Shown here: positions 11,395-23,393 of the stretch, piece after piece | Layout of the letters: each line of letters opens with the position of its first letter | How positions within the stretch are numbered: position 1 is the first letter of the stretch | From: an uncultured Deinococcales bacterium | Lineage (GTDB): Bacteria > Deinococcota > Deinococci > Deinococcales > JAAFIG01 | DNA length: 53,311 nucleotides | Assembly: GCA_964244895.1 (NCBI GenBank) | Contig: CAXTKV010000007.1 | Location: 1-53,311 of the forward strand | Direction: 5' to 3' | Notes under the pieces: model-generated | The model's database searches: none | Seen by the model: the letters and a program-made list of their open reading frames with translations, nothing else | Told to the model about the DNA's origin: nothing | Made by a program: the position numbers and the translations under genes

Positions 11395-11460
11395 CAAGAA
11401 CACCGTCCTGGACAATCAATTTCAGCATCGTGAAGTCTTGCGTGCTGGACGGTGTTCTTG
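11395..11460. repeat. Dispersed palindrome family A copy
   Basis: CAAGAACACCGTCC...GCGTGCTGGACGGTGTTCTTG. Confidence 0.9.
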
Positions 11461-11568: not shown

Positions 11569-12063
11569 ATGAAAATGACTAAGATCATCCCGGCACTGGT
11601 CGCAGCGTTCGCTACCGTCGCGCTCGCGCAGACCACCGCACAAAAGCCCCAGCTCACGCTCGAGAGCTACCTCGTGCGGACAGAAGTCAAGGATGGCAAG
11701 AGCACTGAGGTCTTCGAGAAGGCCACCAACGTCAAGCCGGGCCAGGTCATGGAGTACCGCGTCAGGGCGCTCAATCCGGGCGATCAGGCCGTCAACAACA
11801 TCACGCTGGAACTGCCGATCCCGCGCAGCACCAGCTACCTGGAAAACACCGCCACCGTCAGCAAGGACGCCAACCTGCTGGCCTCGTGGGATTTCAAGCG
11901 AAGCTTCGGCGCGACCCCGTTGAAGCGCAAGGTCATCCGCGACGGCAAAACCGTCGAAGAGATCGTGCCCGCCACCGAATACACCAACCTCCGCTGGGTT
12001 ATCCGCACGCCGCTGGCCGCGCACGCCAGCTTCGAGTTCAAGGCCCGCGTCAAGATCAAATAA
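11569..12063 (+). CDS. Secreted single DUF11-like domain protein
   Basis: Signal peptide ALA-Q; VKPGQVMEYRVRALNPG...PIP...LRW...FEFKARVKIK; start may be 11575. Confidence 0.85.
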   Translation: MKMTKIIPALVAAFATVALAQTTAQKPQLTLESYLVRTEVKDGKSTEVFEKATNVKPGQVMEYRVRALNPGDQAVNNITLELPIPRSTSYLENTATVSKDANLLASWDFKRSFGATPLKRKVIRDGKTVEEIVPATEYTNLRWVIRTPLAAHASFEFKARVKIK

Positions 12064-12171
12064 CCCACCCCGCTCGAGTCCTCCAGGTCTGGACGCTCGA
12101 GCCTCAATTCTTCACGGCCTGAACTGCCGATCGGCAGCGGAGCAATCATGAGCACTATTTTCGGAGGAAGC

Positions 12172-15111
12172 ATGTTCAAACGCATCGGCGTCGCCGCGAT
12201 CACAGCGGCGTTGCTTTTCGGCACGGCGCTCGCGCAATCCGCGACGCCCGCCGGGACGCAGATTCAAAACCAGGCTTCGGCCACGTACACGGACGCCACG
12301 GGCCAGCCGCAAGTGGCGACCTCGAACCTGGCGATCACGGTCGTGCAGCAGGTCTACGCCATCAACATCACGCCCAACACCCAGTCGGCCACCGGATTGT
12401 TCGGCCCGAGCGACCCGAGCAACTTCACGGGCGTTCCCGCCAGCACCAACGACGATCAGGCGCTCGGCGGCTCGAACGATAACTTCGGCTACACGATCCT
12501 GAATCCCGGCAACGGCTCCGATACGTACACCCTGAGCGTCGTACTGGATCCGGCCAACGCTGGCGCACCGCTGACCGGCGTGACCGTCTATAACGACGCC
12601 AACGGCAACGGCCTGGTCGATCCGGGCGATACCGTGCTGACCGGCTGGAACGCGGGCACGCTGACCGGCACTGTCAACGTCCCGGCCAACGGCAGCGCCA
12701 AAGTCGTGGTCAGCGTCAACGTCCCGAGCAGCGCGGCGGGAACGTCTTACAAGCTCGACCTGACCGGCGTCTCGAGCGGCGGCGCGGGCATCGTGGACAA
12801 GAACAACCTCTCGCGCGTCACGGTGGTCAGCGACGCGATTCTGGATCTGAACAAGGCCGCCGCAGGCCCGGACACCAGCAGTCAGATCACGTACTCCCTG
12901 ACGGGTTCCAACACCGGCAACCAGGCCGGTAAGTCCCGCCCCGGCATCGTGGTCATCACCGGCACGAACGCCGGAACCTACAACGGCGTGCTGATCGCCG
13001 ACGTGATCCCGTCCGGCACGACCTACGTGCAGAACAGCGCTTCCGGCAGCGCCGGTAGCCCGCTGGCCGCCGTGGTCTACAGCACCACCGCAAGCGGTAC
13101 GGCCTGGAGCTTCGATCAGCCCGCCTCCGGCGTGCTGCGCGTCGGCCTGCTGATGCTGCCCGCCAGCCCGATCGCCACGGCCACCAACACCTCCGCCACC
13201 TCGACCAACACCGTGCCCACCAGCGCGAATTACAGCCTCGGCTTCAAGGTCGCGGTCAACGGCGCCACGGCGGCGGGCTCCTCGATCCTGAACACCGCAA
13301 CCGTCGATTACCGCCGCACCAACGGCACGACCGACCAGACCACGACCTCCAACCAGACGACCTCTTTCGCGCCCACCACGCGCTCCGTCGGAGTCGGCCC
13401 GAACGGTTTCGCCACCGGTAACCCCGGAACCATCGCGGGTTACACCGATCCCGTCACCGGCAAAGCGTTCACCTACACCGGTTCCGGTACGGGCGCACCG
13501 ACCAACACCACGGACGTGCAGGCCGTTCCCAGCCAGCGCATGAACACGACCGTCAGCTTCGTGCAGAGCATCACCAACTCCGGCAACGCCAACGACAGCT
13601 TCGCGCTCTCCTTGGACGCCTCGAGCAACCTGCCTGCGGGCACGAACGTCAGCTTCTACCTCTCCGACGGCGCGACACCCCTTTCCGGCAATATCGCCCT
13701 GTCCGCCGGTGCCAACACGAACTTCGTGGTCAAAGTCAACCTGCCCGCCGTGGCCGCACCCGCGACCGGCGCGCCGTTCAACGCGGTCATCAAGGCGACC
13801 TCGCAGGCGGACTCGACCAAGACCGACATCACCACAGACCGCATCACAGCCCTGACCGACGGCCTGGGCGTGACGTTGCGCAACAACGACTCGAGCACCG
13901 CGACCGCGCCGCCCGCCGGAACGACCGCCACCTCGAGCACCCTGAGCGTGACCCCCGGCAGCAGCGTCACCTACCCGTTGGTCGTGACCAACACCGGTGC
14001 CGCCACCGACACCTTCAACCTGAGCGCCAGCGGCGCTGGTCTGCCCGCAGGCGCGACCGTGCAGTTCTTCGTCGACGCCAACGGCGACGGCGTGGCCGAC
14101 AACGCCACCCCGGTCGGCAACACCGGCCCGATCTCGGCGGCAGCCTACTACCAGTTCGTCGCGGTCGTGACGGTTCCCGCCAACGCCGTGCCGCAGACGG
14201 CTGTGGGCTTCACCTTCACCGCCACCTCGACGGACAGCGCCACCACCAGCGACAGCCAGGCCGATGCGTTGACGGTCAGCGCCGTCAACAACTTCAGCTT
14301 CAACCCGAACCGTTCCGGCACGATCACCAGCCCCGGCACCCTGATCTACGCGCACACCGTCACCAACAACGGCAACTCGAGCATCACGGCCCTCCAGATC
14401 GCCCCTTCGGGCGGCGGGGCGGGTTTCAGCTACCAGATCTTCGTCGATGCGAACAACAACGGCAGCGTCGATGCGGGCGAACAGCAGATCAGCACCTCTA
14501 GCGCGACCACGCTGACCGCGGCCATCGCGTCCAGCACGTCCGTCAACCTGCTGGTCGAAGTCACGGCGGCCTCCGGCATCCCCTCGAGCACGGTCGATAC
14601 CAAGACCTTGACTGCGACCGCGACCTTCGGCTCGGGCGGCACCTCGACCGCCAGCGTGATCGACACCACGACCGTCGTGGCCGGCAACTTGCAGGTTTCC
14701 AAAAGCGCTTCGACCGCGACCGTCAAACCGCGCACCCTGCTGCTTCCCGCGAACTACTCGCAGTCCGAGATCACCTACACCATCACCGCTCAGAACATCG
14801 GCAGCGCCGCGATCAGCAACGTGATCGTGTTCGACCCGATTCCGCAGTACACCGATTTCAAGTTCACGACCCTGGCCGTCTCGGGCTGCCCGACCGGTGC
14901 GACCTGCACGGCGGAATACTCGACGGACAACGGTGCGACCTGGAGCGCGACCGCTCCGACGGACACCAACGCCAACGGTTACAGCGATTCGGCGGATGCC
15001 GCGCGCGTCACCAACGTCCGCGTCCGCATCACCAACGCCTCGAGCACGCCGGTCAACGCCTTCACACCCGGCAGCAGCATCACGATCACCTTCACCGTCA
15101 GCGTCCGATAA
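12172..15111 (+). CDS. Secreted DUF11 repeat protein, putative major pilin/fibre subunit
   Basis: GGAGGA RBS 12163-12168, signal peptide ALA-Q, Thr/Ser/Asn-rich Ig-like repeats (NTG..DTF), DxNxNG loops, two DUF11 domains. Confidence 0.88.
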   Translation: MFKRIGVAAITAALLFGTALAQSATPAGTQIQNQASATYTDATGQPQVATSNLAITVVQQVYAINITPNTQSATGLFGPSDPSNFTGVPASTNDDQALGGSNDNFGYTILNPGNGSDTYTLSVVLDPANAGAPLTGVTVYNDANGNGLVDPGDTVLTGWNAGTLTGTVNVPANGSAKVVVSVNVPSSAAGTSYKLDLTGVSSGGAGIVDKNNLSRVTVVSDAILDLNKAAAGPDTSSQITYSLTGSNTGNQAGKSRPGIVVITGTNAGTYNGVLIADVIPSGTTYVQNSASGSAGSPLAAVVYSTTASGTAWSFDQPASGVLRVGLLMLPASPIATATNTSATSTNTVPTSANYSLGFKVAVNGATAAGSSILNTATVDYRRTNGTTDQTTTSNQTTSFAPTTRSVGVGPNGFATGNPGTIAGYTDPVTGKAFTYTGSGTGAPTNTTDVQAVPSQRMNTTVSFVQSITNSGNANDSFALSLDASSNLPAGTNVSFYLSDGATPLSGNIALSAGANTNFVVKVNLPAVAAPATGAPFNAVIKATSQADSTKTDITTDRITALTDGLGVTLRNNDSSTATAPPAGTTATSSTLSVTPGSSVTYPLVVTNTGAATDTFNLSASGAGLPAGATVQFFVDANGDGVADNATPVGNTGPISAAAYYQFVAVVTVPANAVPQTAVGFTFTATSTDSATTSDSQADALTVSAVNNFSFNPNRSGTITSPGTLIYAHTVTNNGNSSITALQIAPSGGGAGFSYQIFVDANNNGSVDAGEQQISTSSATTLTAAIASSTSVNLLVEVTAASGIPSSTVDTKTLTATATFGSGGTSTASVIDTTTVVAGNLQVSKSASTATVKPRTLLLPANYSQSEITYTITAQNIGSAAISNVIVFDPIPQYTDFKFTTLAVSGCPTGATCTAEYSTDNGATWSATAPTDTNANGYSDSADAARVTNVRVRITNASSTPVNAFTPGSSITITFTVSVR

Positions 15112-15118
15112 GCCCTTC

Positions 15119-15162
15119 TCGGCCTCCTGGAGATGTCCGTCCAGGAGGCCGAATCCTCTTTT
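15119..15162 (+). terminator. Intra-operon stem-loop/terminator after the major DUF11 gene
   Basis: TCGGCCTCCTGGA-N8-TCCAGGAGGCCGA followed by ATCCTCTTTT. Confidence 0.7.
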
Positions 15163-15247
15163 GAAGCCGACAACAACGGAAACCAAAATGACTATTCCGG
15201 CGTCCAATCGAAACCCACGCTCAGGCTCTGGCCCGAGCTCAGAACGT

Positions 15248-15288
15248 ACCGTCCGGGACGCACGATTGAGAACATCGTCCTGGACGAT
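15248..15288. repeat. Dispersed palindrome family A copy
   Basis: ACCGTCCGGGACG...CGTCCTGGACGAT. Confidence 0.8.
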
Positions 15289-15308
15289 GCGTCGAAGGGC
15301 GACCCGCG

Positions 15309-18300
15309 ATGATCTCGAGGGCTGAGCTATTCCGCACCGCGCTGGCCGCGACGCTCTGCCTGAGCGCGATCTGGTCGGCCCAGGCGCAATCCGGCCCGAC
15401 TGCGGCGGGCTCGAGCATCGAGAACCAGGCTGCGGTCACGTTTTCCGGGCCGGACGGTCAATCCCGCGTGGCGTTTTCCAACGTGGCGCGCAGCACCGTG
15501 CAGCAGGTCTACGCGATTCAGGTCAAACCCGACGCGGGCAACGCACCGACGACCGCGACATCGTTCGCGTTGCCGCCCGACCCGTCCAACGACCGCGCGG
15601 CCCTGGCGGGTTCGAGCCTCAACTTCGCGTACGCCGTCACCAACCCCGGCAACGGCCCGGATCAGATCGCACTGAACGTTCTGCAATCGAACTCGGACGA
15701 TTTCGATCTGAGCGGCGTCAAGCTGTACCGCGACCTGAACGGCAACGGGCAACTGGACGCGGGCGAACCCGAGATCACCGCGCCGCTGACCCTGGCGGCG
15801 GGATCGCGCCAGTCCGTGGTCGCGGTCGCGCAGGTTCCGCCGACCCAACCGGATGGTGCGAGCGCCAGGATCGATCTGATCGGGCGCTCGATCGGTGATC
15901 CCAGCGCGCTGGACGACAACAACATTGCCCGAGTGACGGTTTCCAGGGACGCCAACCTGACGATTTCCAAGAGCGCCCTGGGTCCGGACGCGTCCGGGCG
16001 GATCGAGTACACGATTCAGGGCTCGAACCTCGGGCGGCGCGCGGCGCGCAGCCTGCCCGGCGCGGCCATCGTGGACGGCGTGCTGACGGACGGCATCCTG
16101 ATCTCCGACGCGATTCCCAGCGGTACGAGCCTGGACATCGACACACCCGCCATCGGCAACTCGGGCGGCGTGGGCGGCTCGAGGGTGGTGTATTTCATCA
16201 ACAGCGCCTGGACGACGATACCCAACGCCTCCGCCAGCCGGGTCGGGTTGCTGATCCGCGACGCCGCACCCACGACCTACACGCCCCAGGACGCGCTGCC
16301 TTCCGGCTCGAGCTACAGCTTGCGGTTCACGGTGCAACTCGGCAGTCTGCTTGCGGGCGGGGCGACCGTCACCAACGTTGCGACCATCGCGTACGGCACT
16401 TCGACCGACGCGACCGTCAATACACCGTCCAACACGACCTTCACGAGCGTCCCGGCGCGCAGCGGTGCGCGCATCGGGCCGTTCAATCAAGCCGACGGCG
16501 CGGCCAGCGGCAGTTACAGCCTGCCGGATCCGATGACCGGACTGAGCTGGGCGATCTCGCGTTCCGGCGACGGAGCGAGCGCCACCGACGAGCAAGCGAT
16601 CGCGAGCGTCACCGGCACCAGGTTCGTGATGTTCAAGAACACCGTCAGGAACACTGGAAACCTGACCGACACCTTCAACGTCACCCCCGACCTGAGCTTG
16701 ACTGGGGCGCACTTGCCGCCCGGAACCGCGATCGAAATCCTCAGCGGTGACGGCGTGACCCCGTTCGGCAGCGTCACGCTCGAGCCGGGCCGGGAAGCGG
16801 ACGTGACCGTGCGGCTGACGCTGCCGACGACCATCACGGCGCTGGAGTCGGTTGATCTGCCCTTGCGGACGACCTCGAGCCTGAACCCTTCGGCCACCGA
16901 CATCACGCGCGACCGCATCTTTCAGGTTTCGCCGTCCATCCCGAGTTACTTCGTCTGGATCGGCCCGTTGGGTCAACCGACCGCGACCGAATACCCGAAC
17001 CTCGCCGACCGTCAAGCCGCGACCAGCTTCGAGGGCACGCCCGTCACCTTTACCAACACCGTGCTGAACGCTGGAAACACCCCGGATCGGATCAACCTCT
17101 CGCTCGAGACGCCCTTGCCGAACGGCTGGAAGCTGAGCTGGTGGAGCGCCGACGGCCTCCAGGAACTGACCGATCACGACGGCGACGGCCTGCCCGACCT
17201 GGGGCCGCTCGCCCCAGGCGAAAGCGCGAATTTCATGCTGCACGTCACGCCGCCAGCGGGCGTCAACGGGGACAACAACGGCGCGGGCTGGAATATCGCG
17301 ATCCGCGCAACCTCCAGCGCGCAACCGAACATGGTCAACCGCACGCTCGACACGATCACCGTCCTGCGGCCCGTGACCGACGCCTGGGCGTTCACCAAGT
17401 CCGTCTCGATCACCCGCGTCCAGCAGGGTGAGACCATCGGTTACAGCTTCAGCCTCGAGAACACCAGCGGCGCGACCCAGAGCGATGTCACCGTCCAGGA
17501 CGCGCTCGAGGCGAACCTTTCGAGCCCCTTCGATGACGCCACGAGCACCGTCCAGGACGCAAAAAACTCGAATGTGTCCTACGCGGTATCCGTCCGCTTC
17601 GATCCCGCCAGCCGCGCGATCACCTGGCGCTTCCCGAGCCTGCCCGCCGGAGCCAGCCTGAAACTCGCTTTCAAGGCGCGCGCGCTCGAAAGCACGCCGG
17701 ACGCGACCACCATCACCAATCGCGGCACCGTCTCGAGCGCAGAGATTCCGCTCGTCGTGTCATCGAACGCCGTGCAGACGGACGTGATCGGCGCTATTTT
17801 GCAACTCGAGAAAATCGCGCTGCAACCGAGCGTCAGCATCGGTGGCAGCCTGGAGTACGAGCTGCGCGTCAAGAACGCCTCCGCGTCGGTCGCGCTGATG
17901 GAAACCACCGTGACCGACACCATGCCCATCGGACTGGCCTACCGAACCGGCTCGAGCCGACTCGACGGAAACGCGATTCTTGACCCGAGCATCGTCGTTC
18001 AGAGCGGCAGGCAAGTGCTGACCTGGAACATCGGTCATCTGGACGCCCAGACCACCGCGCGACTGCGCTTCGCGAGCATCGCCACGCCCGCCCTACCCGA
18101 ACGCGTCGTCAACCAGGCCACCGCCGCGGCGCACACCAACGTCGGAGCCCAGGTGCAGGTCACGTCCAACCGGGCGACCGCCAGCCTCAAACGCGAAGAG
18201 GGCGTCTTCACGCGCCGCAGCGCGATTGTCGGGCGCGTCTATTTCGATACTGACGACGACGGCTCGTTCACCCCAGGCAAGGACGAACCGCTGCCGGGCG

Positions 18301-18887
18301 CGCGCGTCTACCTTTCCACCGGACGCTACGCCATCACCGACCAGGAGGGGCGCTACAGCTTTGCCGAACTCGAGGCCGGAACTTACGCGCTGCGCCTCGA
18401 CCCGATCACCGTGCCGTTCACGCCGCGCACCGACCCCGCCAACCTCGATAAGCCCGGTACCAGCATCCTGCGGCTGGACGGCCCCGGATTGTTCAACGCC
18501 GATTTCCGCCTCAAGCCACCCGTCGCCAGCGCAACCCGAGAACGCCAGACGACGCTGCGCATGGGCGCAATCGAATTGCACAAATCCATCCAGCCCGGCG
18601 GAGCCGGGTACGCCGCGACCATCAGGCTGCACCTGGAAACGCCCATTGCGGCCCTCCGGCTGACCGACCCGATCCCCGCGGGCGCGGAACGCCGAGGGCT
18701 CGAGATCGCCGGCCCCGACGGGCGAGCGCTCGAATTCGCCACCGACGGCGACACGATCCTGTTGGGCGGGCTCGAGCCGGGGGTGTACGTGATCCGCTAC
18801 GCGCTGATCTGCGACCTGACCGAAGATGCCGCGTTCACCGACCCCGATCTGGACTGGGACGATGTCCTGATGCCCGCAAAGAAGTGA
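15309..18887 (+). CDS. Secreted multi-DUF11 protein with SdrD B-like domain
   Basis: Signal peptide AQA-Q; N-terminal half paralogous to the 12172 gene; three complete DUF11 domains; IVGRVYFDTDDDG...GARVYL...TDQEGRYSF. Confidence 0.88.
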   Translation: MISRAELFRTALAATLCLSAIWSAQAQSGPTAAGSSIENQAAVTFSGPDGQSRVAFSNVARSTVQQVYAIQVKPDAGNAPTTATSFALPPDPSNDRAALAGSSLNFAYAVTNPGNGPDQIALNVLQSNSDDFDLSGVKLYRDLNGNGQLDAGEPEITAPLTLAAGSRQSVVAVAQVPPTQPDGASARIDLIGRSIGDPSALDDNNIARVTVSRDANLTISKSALGPDASGRIEYTIQGSNLGRRAARSLPGAAIVDGVLTDGILISDAIPSGTSLDIDTPAIGNSGGVGGSRVVYFINSAWTTIPNASASRVGLLIRDAAPTTYTPQDALPSGSSYSLRFTVQLGSLLAGGATVTNVATIAYGTSTDATVNTPSNTTFTSVPARSGARIGPFNQADGAASGSYSLPDPMTGLSWAISRSGDGASATDEQAIASVTGTRFVMFKNTVRNTGNLTDTFNVTPDLSLTGAHLPPGTAIEILSGDGVTPFGSVTLEPGREADVTVRLTLPTTITALESVDLPLRTTSSLNPSATDITRDRIFQVSPSIPSYFVWIGPLGQPTATEYPNLADRQAATSFEGTPVTFTNTVLNAGNTPDRINLSLETPLPNGWKLSWWSADGLQELTDHDGDGLPDLGPLAPGESANFMLHVTPPAGVNGDNNGAGWNIAIRATSSAQPNMVNRTLDTITVLRPVTDAWAFTKSVSITRVQQGETIGYSFSLENTSGATQSDVTVQDALEANLSSPFDDATSTVQDAKNSNVSYAVSVRFDPASRAITWRFPSLPAGASLKLAFKARALESTPDATTITNRGTVSSAEIPLVVSSNAVQTDVIGAILQLEKIALQPSVSIGGSLEYELRVKNASASVALMETTVTDTMPIGLAYRTGSSRLDGNAILDPSIVVQSGRQVLTWNIGHLDAQTTARLRFASIATPALPERVVNQATAAAHTNVGAQVQVTSNRATASLKREEGVFTRRSAIVGRVYFDTDDDGSFTPGKDEPLPGARVYLSTGRYAITDQEGRYSFAELEAGTYALRLDPITVPFTPRTDPANLDKPGTSILRLDGPGLFNADFRLKPPVASATRERQTTLRMGAIELHKSIQPGGAGYAATIRLHLETPIAALRLTDPIPAGAERRGLEIAGPDGRALEFATDGDTILLGGLEPGVYVIRYALICDLTEDAAFTDPDLDWDDVLMPAKK

Positions 18888-18928: not shown

Positions 18929-18953
18929 AAAACACCGTCCTGGACGGTGTTTT
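18929..18953. repeat. Dispersed palindrome family A, collapsed copy
   Basis: AAAACACCGTCC-T-GGACGGTGTTTT. Confidence 0.9.
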
Positions 18954-23370: not shown

Positions 23371-23393
23371 AAACACCGTCCTGGACGGTGTTT
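23371..23393. repeat. Dispersed palindrome family A, collapsed copy
   Basis: AAACACCGTCC-T-GGACGGTGTTT. Confidence 0.9.

Follow-up and report, generated by a model that had tools for sequence, protein, structure and literature searches.

A split DUF11/CLIPPER domain in a conserved operon suggests a self-locking, donor-strand surface fibre in diderm bacteria

Why should a secreted protein end in a domain that lacks its last strands, and carry what look like those strands at its opposite end? The question is raised by protein A (979 amino acids), encoded at 12172..15111 on the + strand of contig CAXTKV010000007.1 (assembly GCA_964244895.1) from an uncultured Deinococcales bacterium. The whole 53,311-nucleotide stretch that was analysed is called the window. 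A lies between two genes of the same strand, C (11569..12063, 164 amino acids) and B (15309..18887, 1192 amino acids). The split of the last domain of A, together with the conservation of its terminal residues, exceeds chance. Judged from sequence, complementation in trans of some kind is very likely, and A is probably the shaft subunit of a surface fibre: the front hairpin of one copy would complete the tail domain of the next and be locked there by a self-formed Lys-Asn bond.

A opens with a likely Sec signal peptide (12172..12234), recognised by eye from its basic start, hydrophobic core and ALA-Q, with the hydropathy peak at residue 5 and a modelled helix at 5-15. It is followed by a donor beta-hairpin (12235..12351, residues 22-60), by a complete immunoglobulin (Ig)-like domain 1 (12352..12834, residues about 60-221; fold matches begin at 61-63) of the same type as domains 3-5, and by a complete internal DUF11/CLIPPER domain, recognised by fold and conservation (12835..13377, residues 222-402). 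Three tandem Ig-like stalk domains, delimited by AlphaFold, profile and fold matches (13378..14682, residues 403-837), lead to the C-terminal acceptor (14683..15108), a CLIPPER domain minus its last two strands. A thus holds five complete Ig-like domains, one of them a whole CLIPPER. The AlphaFold model, built with 99 sequences, has a mean predicted local distance difference test score of 88.6 and consists of the hairpin (30-58) and six beta-sandwich domains.

The reactive residues that a sequence-only reading of this DNA had pointed out are all in place and in frame: K228 (12853), D277 (13000) and N374 (13291) in the internal domain, K844 (14701) and D888 (14833) in the acceptor, and N33 (12268) in the hairpin of A, with N39 (15423) as its counterpart in B. 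The sequence also confirms that A terminates with ITITFTVSVR and a stop codon. In profile-profile comparisons, with all profiles cut from one 99-sequence alignment, residues 836-979 match the internal domain (220-402) at its positions 5-144, where they end (probability 98.2, E 5e-14), and residues 24-60 align to positions 147-183 (probability 94.0, E 1.4e-7). Because 5-144 and 147-183 are covered, the two ends of A tile one whole domain without overlap. In the AlphaFold model, donor strands 30-40 and 46-58 repeat the pattern of strands 371-381 and 388-399 in the internal domain. The segment missing from the end of A had been said to stand at its mature N terminus and again at the start of B; the alignment of 24-60 bears this out, as does the donor hairpin of B (15396..15506), which is 55% identical to that of A over 40 amino acids (E 7e-8) and scores 35.9 bits with the donor profile.

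Two details of the sequence-only reading need revision. It had the C-terminal domain stop just before an Asn-bearing last strand; the stop does fall where the hairpin begins, but the missing piece is a two-strand hairpin. It had also likened the domain to the CnaB type. DUF11 (PF01345) has been renamed CLIPPER and is CnaA-like; Lys715 bonds to Asn806 next to Asp748, and the domain continues as far as residue 828 (PMC12617251). Because CLIPPER is CnaA-like and Asn806 lies within a domain continuing to 828, the missing piece comprises two strands and the CnaB label is wrong. The modelled internal domain of A agrees, matching CLIPPER 9IFR with Z 10.9 and a root-mean-square deviation of 2.4 over 120/123 aligned residues. 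It also matches BcpA (3kpt) with Z 12.4, and the fold match to Jo-In (5mkc) has Z 9.5. The terminal acceptor appears in neither top-50 fold list, the acceptor not having been folded on its own. Foldseek with the full model of A returned generic tandem-Ig matches only, and searching PDB sequences with A, with B and with the profile gave nothing below E 0.2. As to domain family, A scores 38.5 bits with TIGR01451 (cut-off 24) and 18.3 bits with PF01345, below the cut-off of 24.6 that B exceeds with 72.4 bits.

Could the hairpin simply belong to the neighbouring domain 1? That it forms part of the sheet of domain 1 had been named as a finding that would overturn the proposal. Domain 1 matches the complete domain 705-837 end to end (probability 99.4) and is therefore independent of the hairpin; the end-to-end match rules out the hairpin as part of domain 1.

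Conservation of the terminal residues is nearly complete. Among the first 103 matches, query included, N33 is present in 101, the two misses being N-terminal fragments, and D888 in 102. A full-length set was pooled from homologue hits and loci and restricted to 780-1050 amino acids; 318 of its 320 members aligned over >600 positions. N33 and D888 are each found in 316 of these 318 relatives, and K844 in 301 by column, with 14 more explained by one-column alignment offsets. The chain ends within 8 residues of the model end (<=8) in all 318. After the one-column Lys correction of those 14, the terminal triad N33/K844/D888 is whole in 313/318, compared with 304/318 for the internal triad K228/D277/N374. 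Internal Lys was lost 13 times, and because Asn vanished with it in 12 of these cases, the internal triad appears to act as a unit. The exceptions to the terminal triad are three shafts without the acceptor Lys but with N33, one without Asn and one record truncated at the N terminus. Retention of N33 in the three Lys-less shafts is expected if N33 has another partner, and at the locus of one of them (L023) the tip protein retains Lys and Asp.

Candidate partners occur in the conserved operon. We examined 99 loci, comprising the best 80 of 506 confirmed and 19 hand-picked regions, and classified their open reading frames (ORFs) by donor and acceptor profiles. This gave 83 shafts with both halves, 26 proteins that begin with a donor and finish in a barrel-like part, 44 other donor-only ORFs (a large share of them cut by the end of the locus), acceptor-only ORFs of which 34 were small and 33 large, and 27 that fitted none of these classes. 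C lies directly upstream in 77 of the 81 shafts with room for it, a count that is partly circular because 32 small acceptor ORFs served to build the C profile. A donor-starting frame follows the shaft in 68/77 cases, compared with 0/77 on the reverse strand. The split architecture is conserved in homologous operons, a point that the sequence-only reading had marked for checking. The operon is kept across several diderm phyla, with relatives in Pseudomonadota, Verrucomicrobiota, Acidobacteriota and others, and in the phylum of the window the profile finds matches, some of them partial, in 146 of 201 genomes. Among named organisms, Meiothermus, Calidithermus, Thermus and Deinococcus have the closest relatives of A. 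On plasmid pTT27 of T. thermophilus HB8, five genes stand in operon order (TTH_RS10905-10925), all annotated as hypothetical or DUF11.

Genomes of the window's order contain a shorter (735-782 amino acids), divergent shaft type with the same operon layout (L113:4245-6593 and L118:9880-12087), and some genomes carry two operons. Subunits can differ greatly in length, as illustrated by P0151, a 3376-residue protein with many internal domains, a donor hairpin at its start and an acceptor at its end.

The small gene C encodes a secreted-looking, DUF11-like acceptor (TIGR01451, 28.2 bits against a cut-off of 24) that lacks the terminal hairpin. When positions are equated by motif, the Lys position holds K in 0/78 C proteins and the Asp position holds D in 0/78. 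Because both residues are absent, C could accept a hairpin yet not react with it. We propose from these sequence features that C is a reversible cap or chaperone for the donor hairpin. An Arg in the last strand of C is near-invariant (R160, 76/78) and is not conserved in the shaft acceptor.

Protein B is donor-only and is proposed to be the base, or a linker to a barrel protein, D. Its N-terminal hairpin (N39) precedes three complete CLIPPERs (K221/D267/N356, K697/D731/N804 and K835/D870/N935), an SdrD_B-like domain and a small terminal Ig domain with K1092, D1120 and a final TDP-x-x-x-W strand. This B-type end, with conserved Lys, Asp and TDP-x-x-x-W strand, occurs in 14 Deinococcota-type proteins and may be a general hook onto the barrel. 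In Deinococcota-type loci B and D are separate genes; elsewhere they are fused. D shows homology (E down to 4e-21) to the rear half of the donor-barrel fusion, and the fused anchors listed match the B profile only up to about the SdrD_B-like part. The donor Asn is present in 22/26 donor-to-barrel proteins and 42/44 other donor-only ORFs, under a profile that favours Asn. D is likely an outer-membrane barrel: the Atlas neighbours of the barrel proteins are outer-membrane clusters, with scores of 0.92 and below. One Atlas cluster, 35% of whose members are ushers, had a score of 0.76, which we take as a lead only; the usher family (PF00577) gave no match in 5 barrel proteins at E 0.01. A count of amphipathic strands gave no clear contrast for the barrel. 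In the window's genome D is located on another contig, C28 (9242-15622, L119). Directly before it lies a 3013-codon ORF (G000:C28:228-9269) with many DUF11/DUF7507 repeats, no donor hairpin and a B-type C-terminal module.

At the opposite end of the system would stand an acceptor-only adhesin, E. Once 4 mis-started shafts are removed from the 33 large acceptor-only proteins, Lys and Asp are both present in 28/29, and some of these proteins carry lectin or beta-helix domains. An orphan acceptor-only protein of ~770 amino acids (G000:C23:14592-16931, - strand), whose truncated final domain has both Lys and Asp, is a candidate tip encoded far from the operon. The sequence-only reading, although it had recognised the split shaft, was silent on the barrel, the tip adhesin and the role of the small upstream gene.

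Some genomes join the proposed chain within single polypeptides. In P0104 (4 junctions) and P0105 (1 junction), an acceptor is followed immediately by the next donor, and Lys, an acid and Asn are all present. The same acceptor-donor layout occurs at three junctions of L068:9980-20293, a Nitrospirota record directly behind a normal shaft gene; this record is not independent of P0104 because the two are 60% identical. These fused giants correspond to 2-4 shaft units head to tail. Read from their sequences, the tandem fusions would be a covalent version of the proposed chain, and they also fit an origin by repeat permutation.

A second feature concerns the amount of A. Between A and B lies a terminator-like hairpin with a T run (15119..15152, + strand), which reaches z -5.0 in comparison with 200 shuffled sequences. 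Downstream of the shaft gene, stable folds (z < -2) occur in 51/83 loci. The same test gave 10/92 after C, 4/51 after the barrel gene and 2/29 after the tip gene, with control windows that often run into coding sequence. Such a hairpin behind A would favour more A than B, and its presence in 51/83 loci fits A as the abundant subunit.

If A is a fibre shaft, assembly might proceed as follows. Sec export and signal cleavage would leave a free hairpin, probably held by C. The hairpin would insert into the open edge of the acceptor of another subunit, placing Asn33 beside Lys844 and Asp888, and an Asp-assisted Lys-Asn amide would form with loss of NH3. The predicted polarity runs from a base, in which donor-only B is tied to or fused with barrel D, through A repeated n times to the acceptor-only adhesin E at the tip. 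D would anchor the fibre, and may export it too.

Chaperone-usher pili such as type 1 and P pili have a comparable polarity, with an acceptor-only tip adhesin, shaft subunits that carry both donor and acceptor, and a donor-only base. They share with the present system these tip, shaft and base partner classes, an outer-membrane barrel and a small helper. There, however, a single strand is bound non-covalently, whereas here the helper resembles the acceptor of the donor and not a strand donor for the groove. The chemistry is closer to that of BsaA of Clostridium perfringens, a TasA-family protein in which an N-terminal donor with Asn and an acceptor with Lys and a catalytic acid likewise give a sortase-independent covalent polymer (PMC11580942). 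That layout of residues, with Asn on the N-terminal donor and Lys plus acid on the acceptor, is matched in sequence by N33 and K844/D888. BsaA differs in its monoderm host, SipW operon, TasA-like subunit, single donor strand and use of Glu as the acid; the system described here has multi-domain CLIPPER subunits, a two-strand hairpin, Asp, diderm hosts, its own barrel and a small non-reactive acceptor. By analogy, the proposed fibre would have the polarity of a chaperone-usher pilus and the chemistry of BsaA.

None of these known systems is recovered by family searches. Usher and sortase (PF04203) profiles gave no match in the 91% complete genome, the sortase control search being positive in 3/14 genomes, and the final 60 residues of A, of B and of C contain no LPxTG-like motif. 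Peptidase_M73 (TasA/camelysin) does not match A, B or C at E 0.1, and the PapD family does not match C at E 0.1, C matching DUF11/TIGR01451. By eye, the neighbour lists contain no SipW peptidase gene, although no family scan was aimed at SipW. Tests for the defining families of chaperone-usher pili, sortase pili and BsaA (usher, PapD, LPxTG/sortase and the TasA subunit) thus all failed here.

Other precedents are related to single aspects of the proposal. CLIPPER domains (PDB 9IFR, PMC12617251) have the same fold and Lys-Asp-Asn order and occur in adhesin stalks, also Gram-negative ones. Their bond is intramolecular within one domain, whereas here the Asn hairpin is separated from the Lys/Asp body, either by the length of a protein or by being encoded in another gene; the main text of that paper contains neither "split" nor "Deinococc". 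The archaeal thread Saci_0406 (PMC9715654) likewise combines head-to-tail donor-strand complementation with proposed intermolecular isopeptide bonds, but these link Asn57 to the N-terminal amine of subunit n+2, the subunit protein is of another kind, and there is no Lys-Asp-Asn triad. SpyTag/SpyCatcher had been cited as the precedent for a split domain that reacts in trans. Jo-In is closer: this split RrgA D2 (PDB 5MKC; PMC5333627), of similar fold, re-forms in trans through an Asp-dependent Lys-Asn bond with a change of -17 Da. Jo-In was engineered from an intramolecular domain, has Lys in one half and both Asp and Asn in the other, and is no natural polymer. CryoSeek TLP-1 fibrils (PMC11494351), haloarchaeal tafi (PMC11821415) and Litorilinea DUF11 hooks (10.1101/2025.08.19.671072) were set aside, as the accessible texts describe no split DUF11 with isopeptides. 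We found no description of this operon in the main texts searched, which cover few subscription journals.

Head-to-tail assembly in trans, as first suggested from the sequence, is well supported, though indirectly, by the tiling, the conserved triad, the donor-only and acceptor-only partners, the fusions and the lack of sortase or LPxTG, while covariation gave no signal beyond its negative controls and AlphaFold does not discriminate. Several observations count against the fibre. Mean-field covariation was computed over 318 sequences (effective number 253) with 25 template pairs. Its internal control was positive, with N374-K228 and N374-D277 at the top; the hairpin-acceptor pairs gave a mean z of 0.41, compared with 0.66 and 0.42 in two negative pairings. 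The test has little power, given how little variation there is at the terminal residues and that one acceptor would meet donors encoded by several genes. AlphaFold confidence for the hairpin was 79/94/93/93 with the acceptor absent and 84/95/88/94 with it present, in two runs with different alignments, and gives no support for docking. Moreover, 4/81 shaft loci are without C and 9/77 without a detectable downstream donor gene; the barrel and tip genes are not adjacent in the window and lie on other contigs; and Porin_4, above its cut-off in 1/5 barrel proteins scanned, is the only outer-membrane family to pass.

How do other explanations account for the same features? A short modular adhesin, consisting of a base, one or few copies of A and a tip, would be a giant fibrillar adhesin made from several genes, keeping the split-domain locking and forming no long pilus. 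The fused forms contain only 2-4 shaft units, each A is already a six-domain stalk, and C could act as a chain-ending cap. We nonetheless consider this arrangement unlikely, as A carries both halves and nothing in A would stop self-extension, and the terminator-like hairpin after A in 51/83 loci suggests an excess of A. Complementation in trans might also be real but non-covalent, with Lys, Asp and Asn retained for packing. This is improbable given the near-invariance of the triad, set against C, an acceptor of the same shape without Lys and Asp in 78/78 cases, and given the bond seen in the crystal of a whole CLIPPER (PMC12617251); on its side are the few shafts that lack Lys or Asn (4/318 and one N-terminally truncated record) and the BsaA N35A oligomers that withstand sodium dodecyl sulfate unheated (PMC11580942).

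The remaining two explanations dispense with a partner. Self-circularisation, which the sequence-only reading had kept as its alternative, would have the hairpin of A complete its own C-terminal domain as a discontinuous domain. Both halves do reside in one protein, and single-chain domains assembled from distant parts exist in RrgA D1/D2 (PMC5333627). Complementation in trans is preferred over self-closure because donor-only and acceptor-only partners exist: B and the anchors on one side and E and C on the other keep their halves, B and E with reactive residues too, which would be senseless without partners in trans. Three shafts without the acceptor Lys still have N33, and the halves are separated by five tandem domains with short linkers, which we infer would impose strain on closure. 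Self-closure is accordingly improbable. Least credible is the split as a relic of circular permutation of a repeat, in which the hairpin packs on domain 1 or directs export, and the C-terminal domain needs no addition to be stable. AlphaFold is confident in the hairpin without the acceptor, the covariation signal is absent, and tandem repeats exist as a possible source of a permuted unit; yet the match of domain 1 to complete domains spans their full length with the hairpin left out, several phyla have retained the buried Lys, Asp and Asn, and the acceptor lacks two core strands.

A promoter scan at the locus found none, and among sequencing runs that contain this DNA no RNA run was listed, one run having a share of 0.18. 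The C-A-B run, on the + strand, follows what we take, from its motif, to be an ffh (signal recognition particle)-like gene, and each of the three genes opens by eye with a signal-peptide-like stretch. A palindrome resembling repetitive extragenic palindromic (REP) elements, ACACCGTCC...GGACGGTGT, is present at window positions 18929-18953, 11400-11455 and 23371-23390 and at many other intergenic sites throughout the genome. One strand of the 5.1 Mb assembly has 1078 copies of the REP-like 9-mer, against ~30 expected from base composition by a hand estimate, and the closed hairpin is found 82 times.

The split system is real and conserved and, to judge from the literature searched, apparently undescribed; it would be a variant of the donor-strand, self-locking fibre that has an outer-membrane component of its own. 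On balance, we lean towards an unnamed, widespread class of diderm pilus, present also in Thermus thermophilus HB8, in which CLIPPER subunits are joined by donor-hairpin complementation into a covalent chain without sortase or usher, a catalytically dead acceptor caps the donor, and a dedicated giant outer-membrane barrel exports and anchors the fibre; this would amount to a polymer made in nature on the SpyTag principle. Covalent pili have so far been mainly sortase systems of monoderms, together with BsaA and the archaeal thread. If the proposal is true, the diderms would gain a covalent fibre that needs no sortase and has outer-membrane machinery of its own, and a large number of genes now called "DUF11" or "hypothetical", including the five-gene run of HB8, would receive a function. 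The proposal would also provide many natural split tag/catcher pairs for protein ligation, some of them thermostable.

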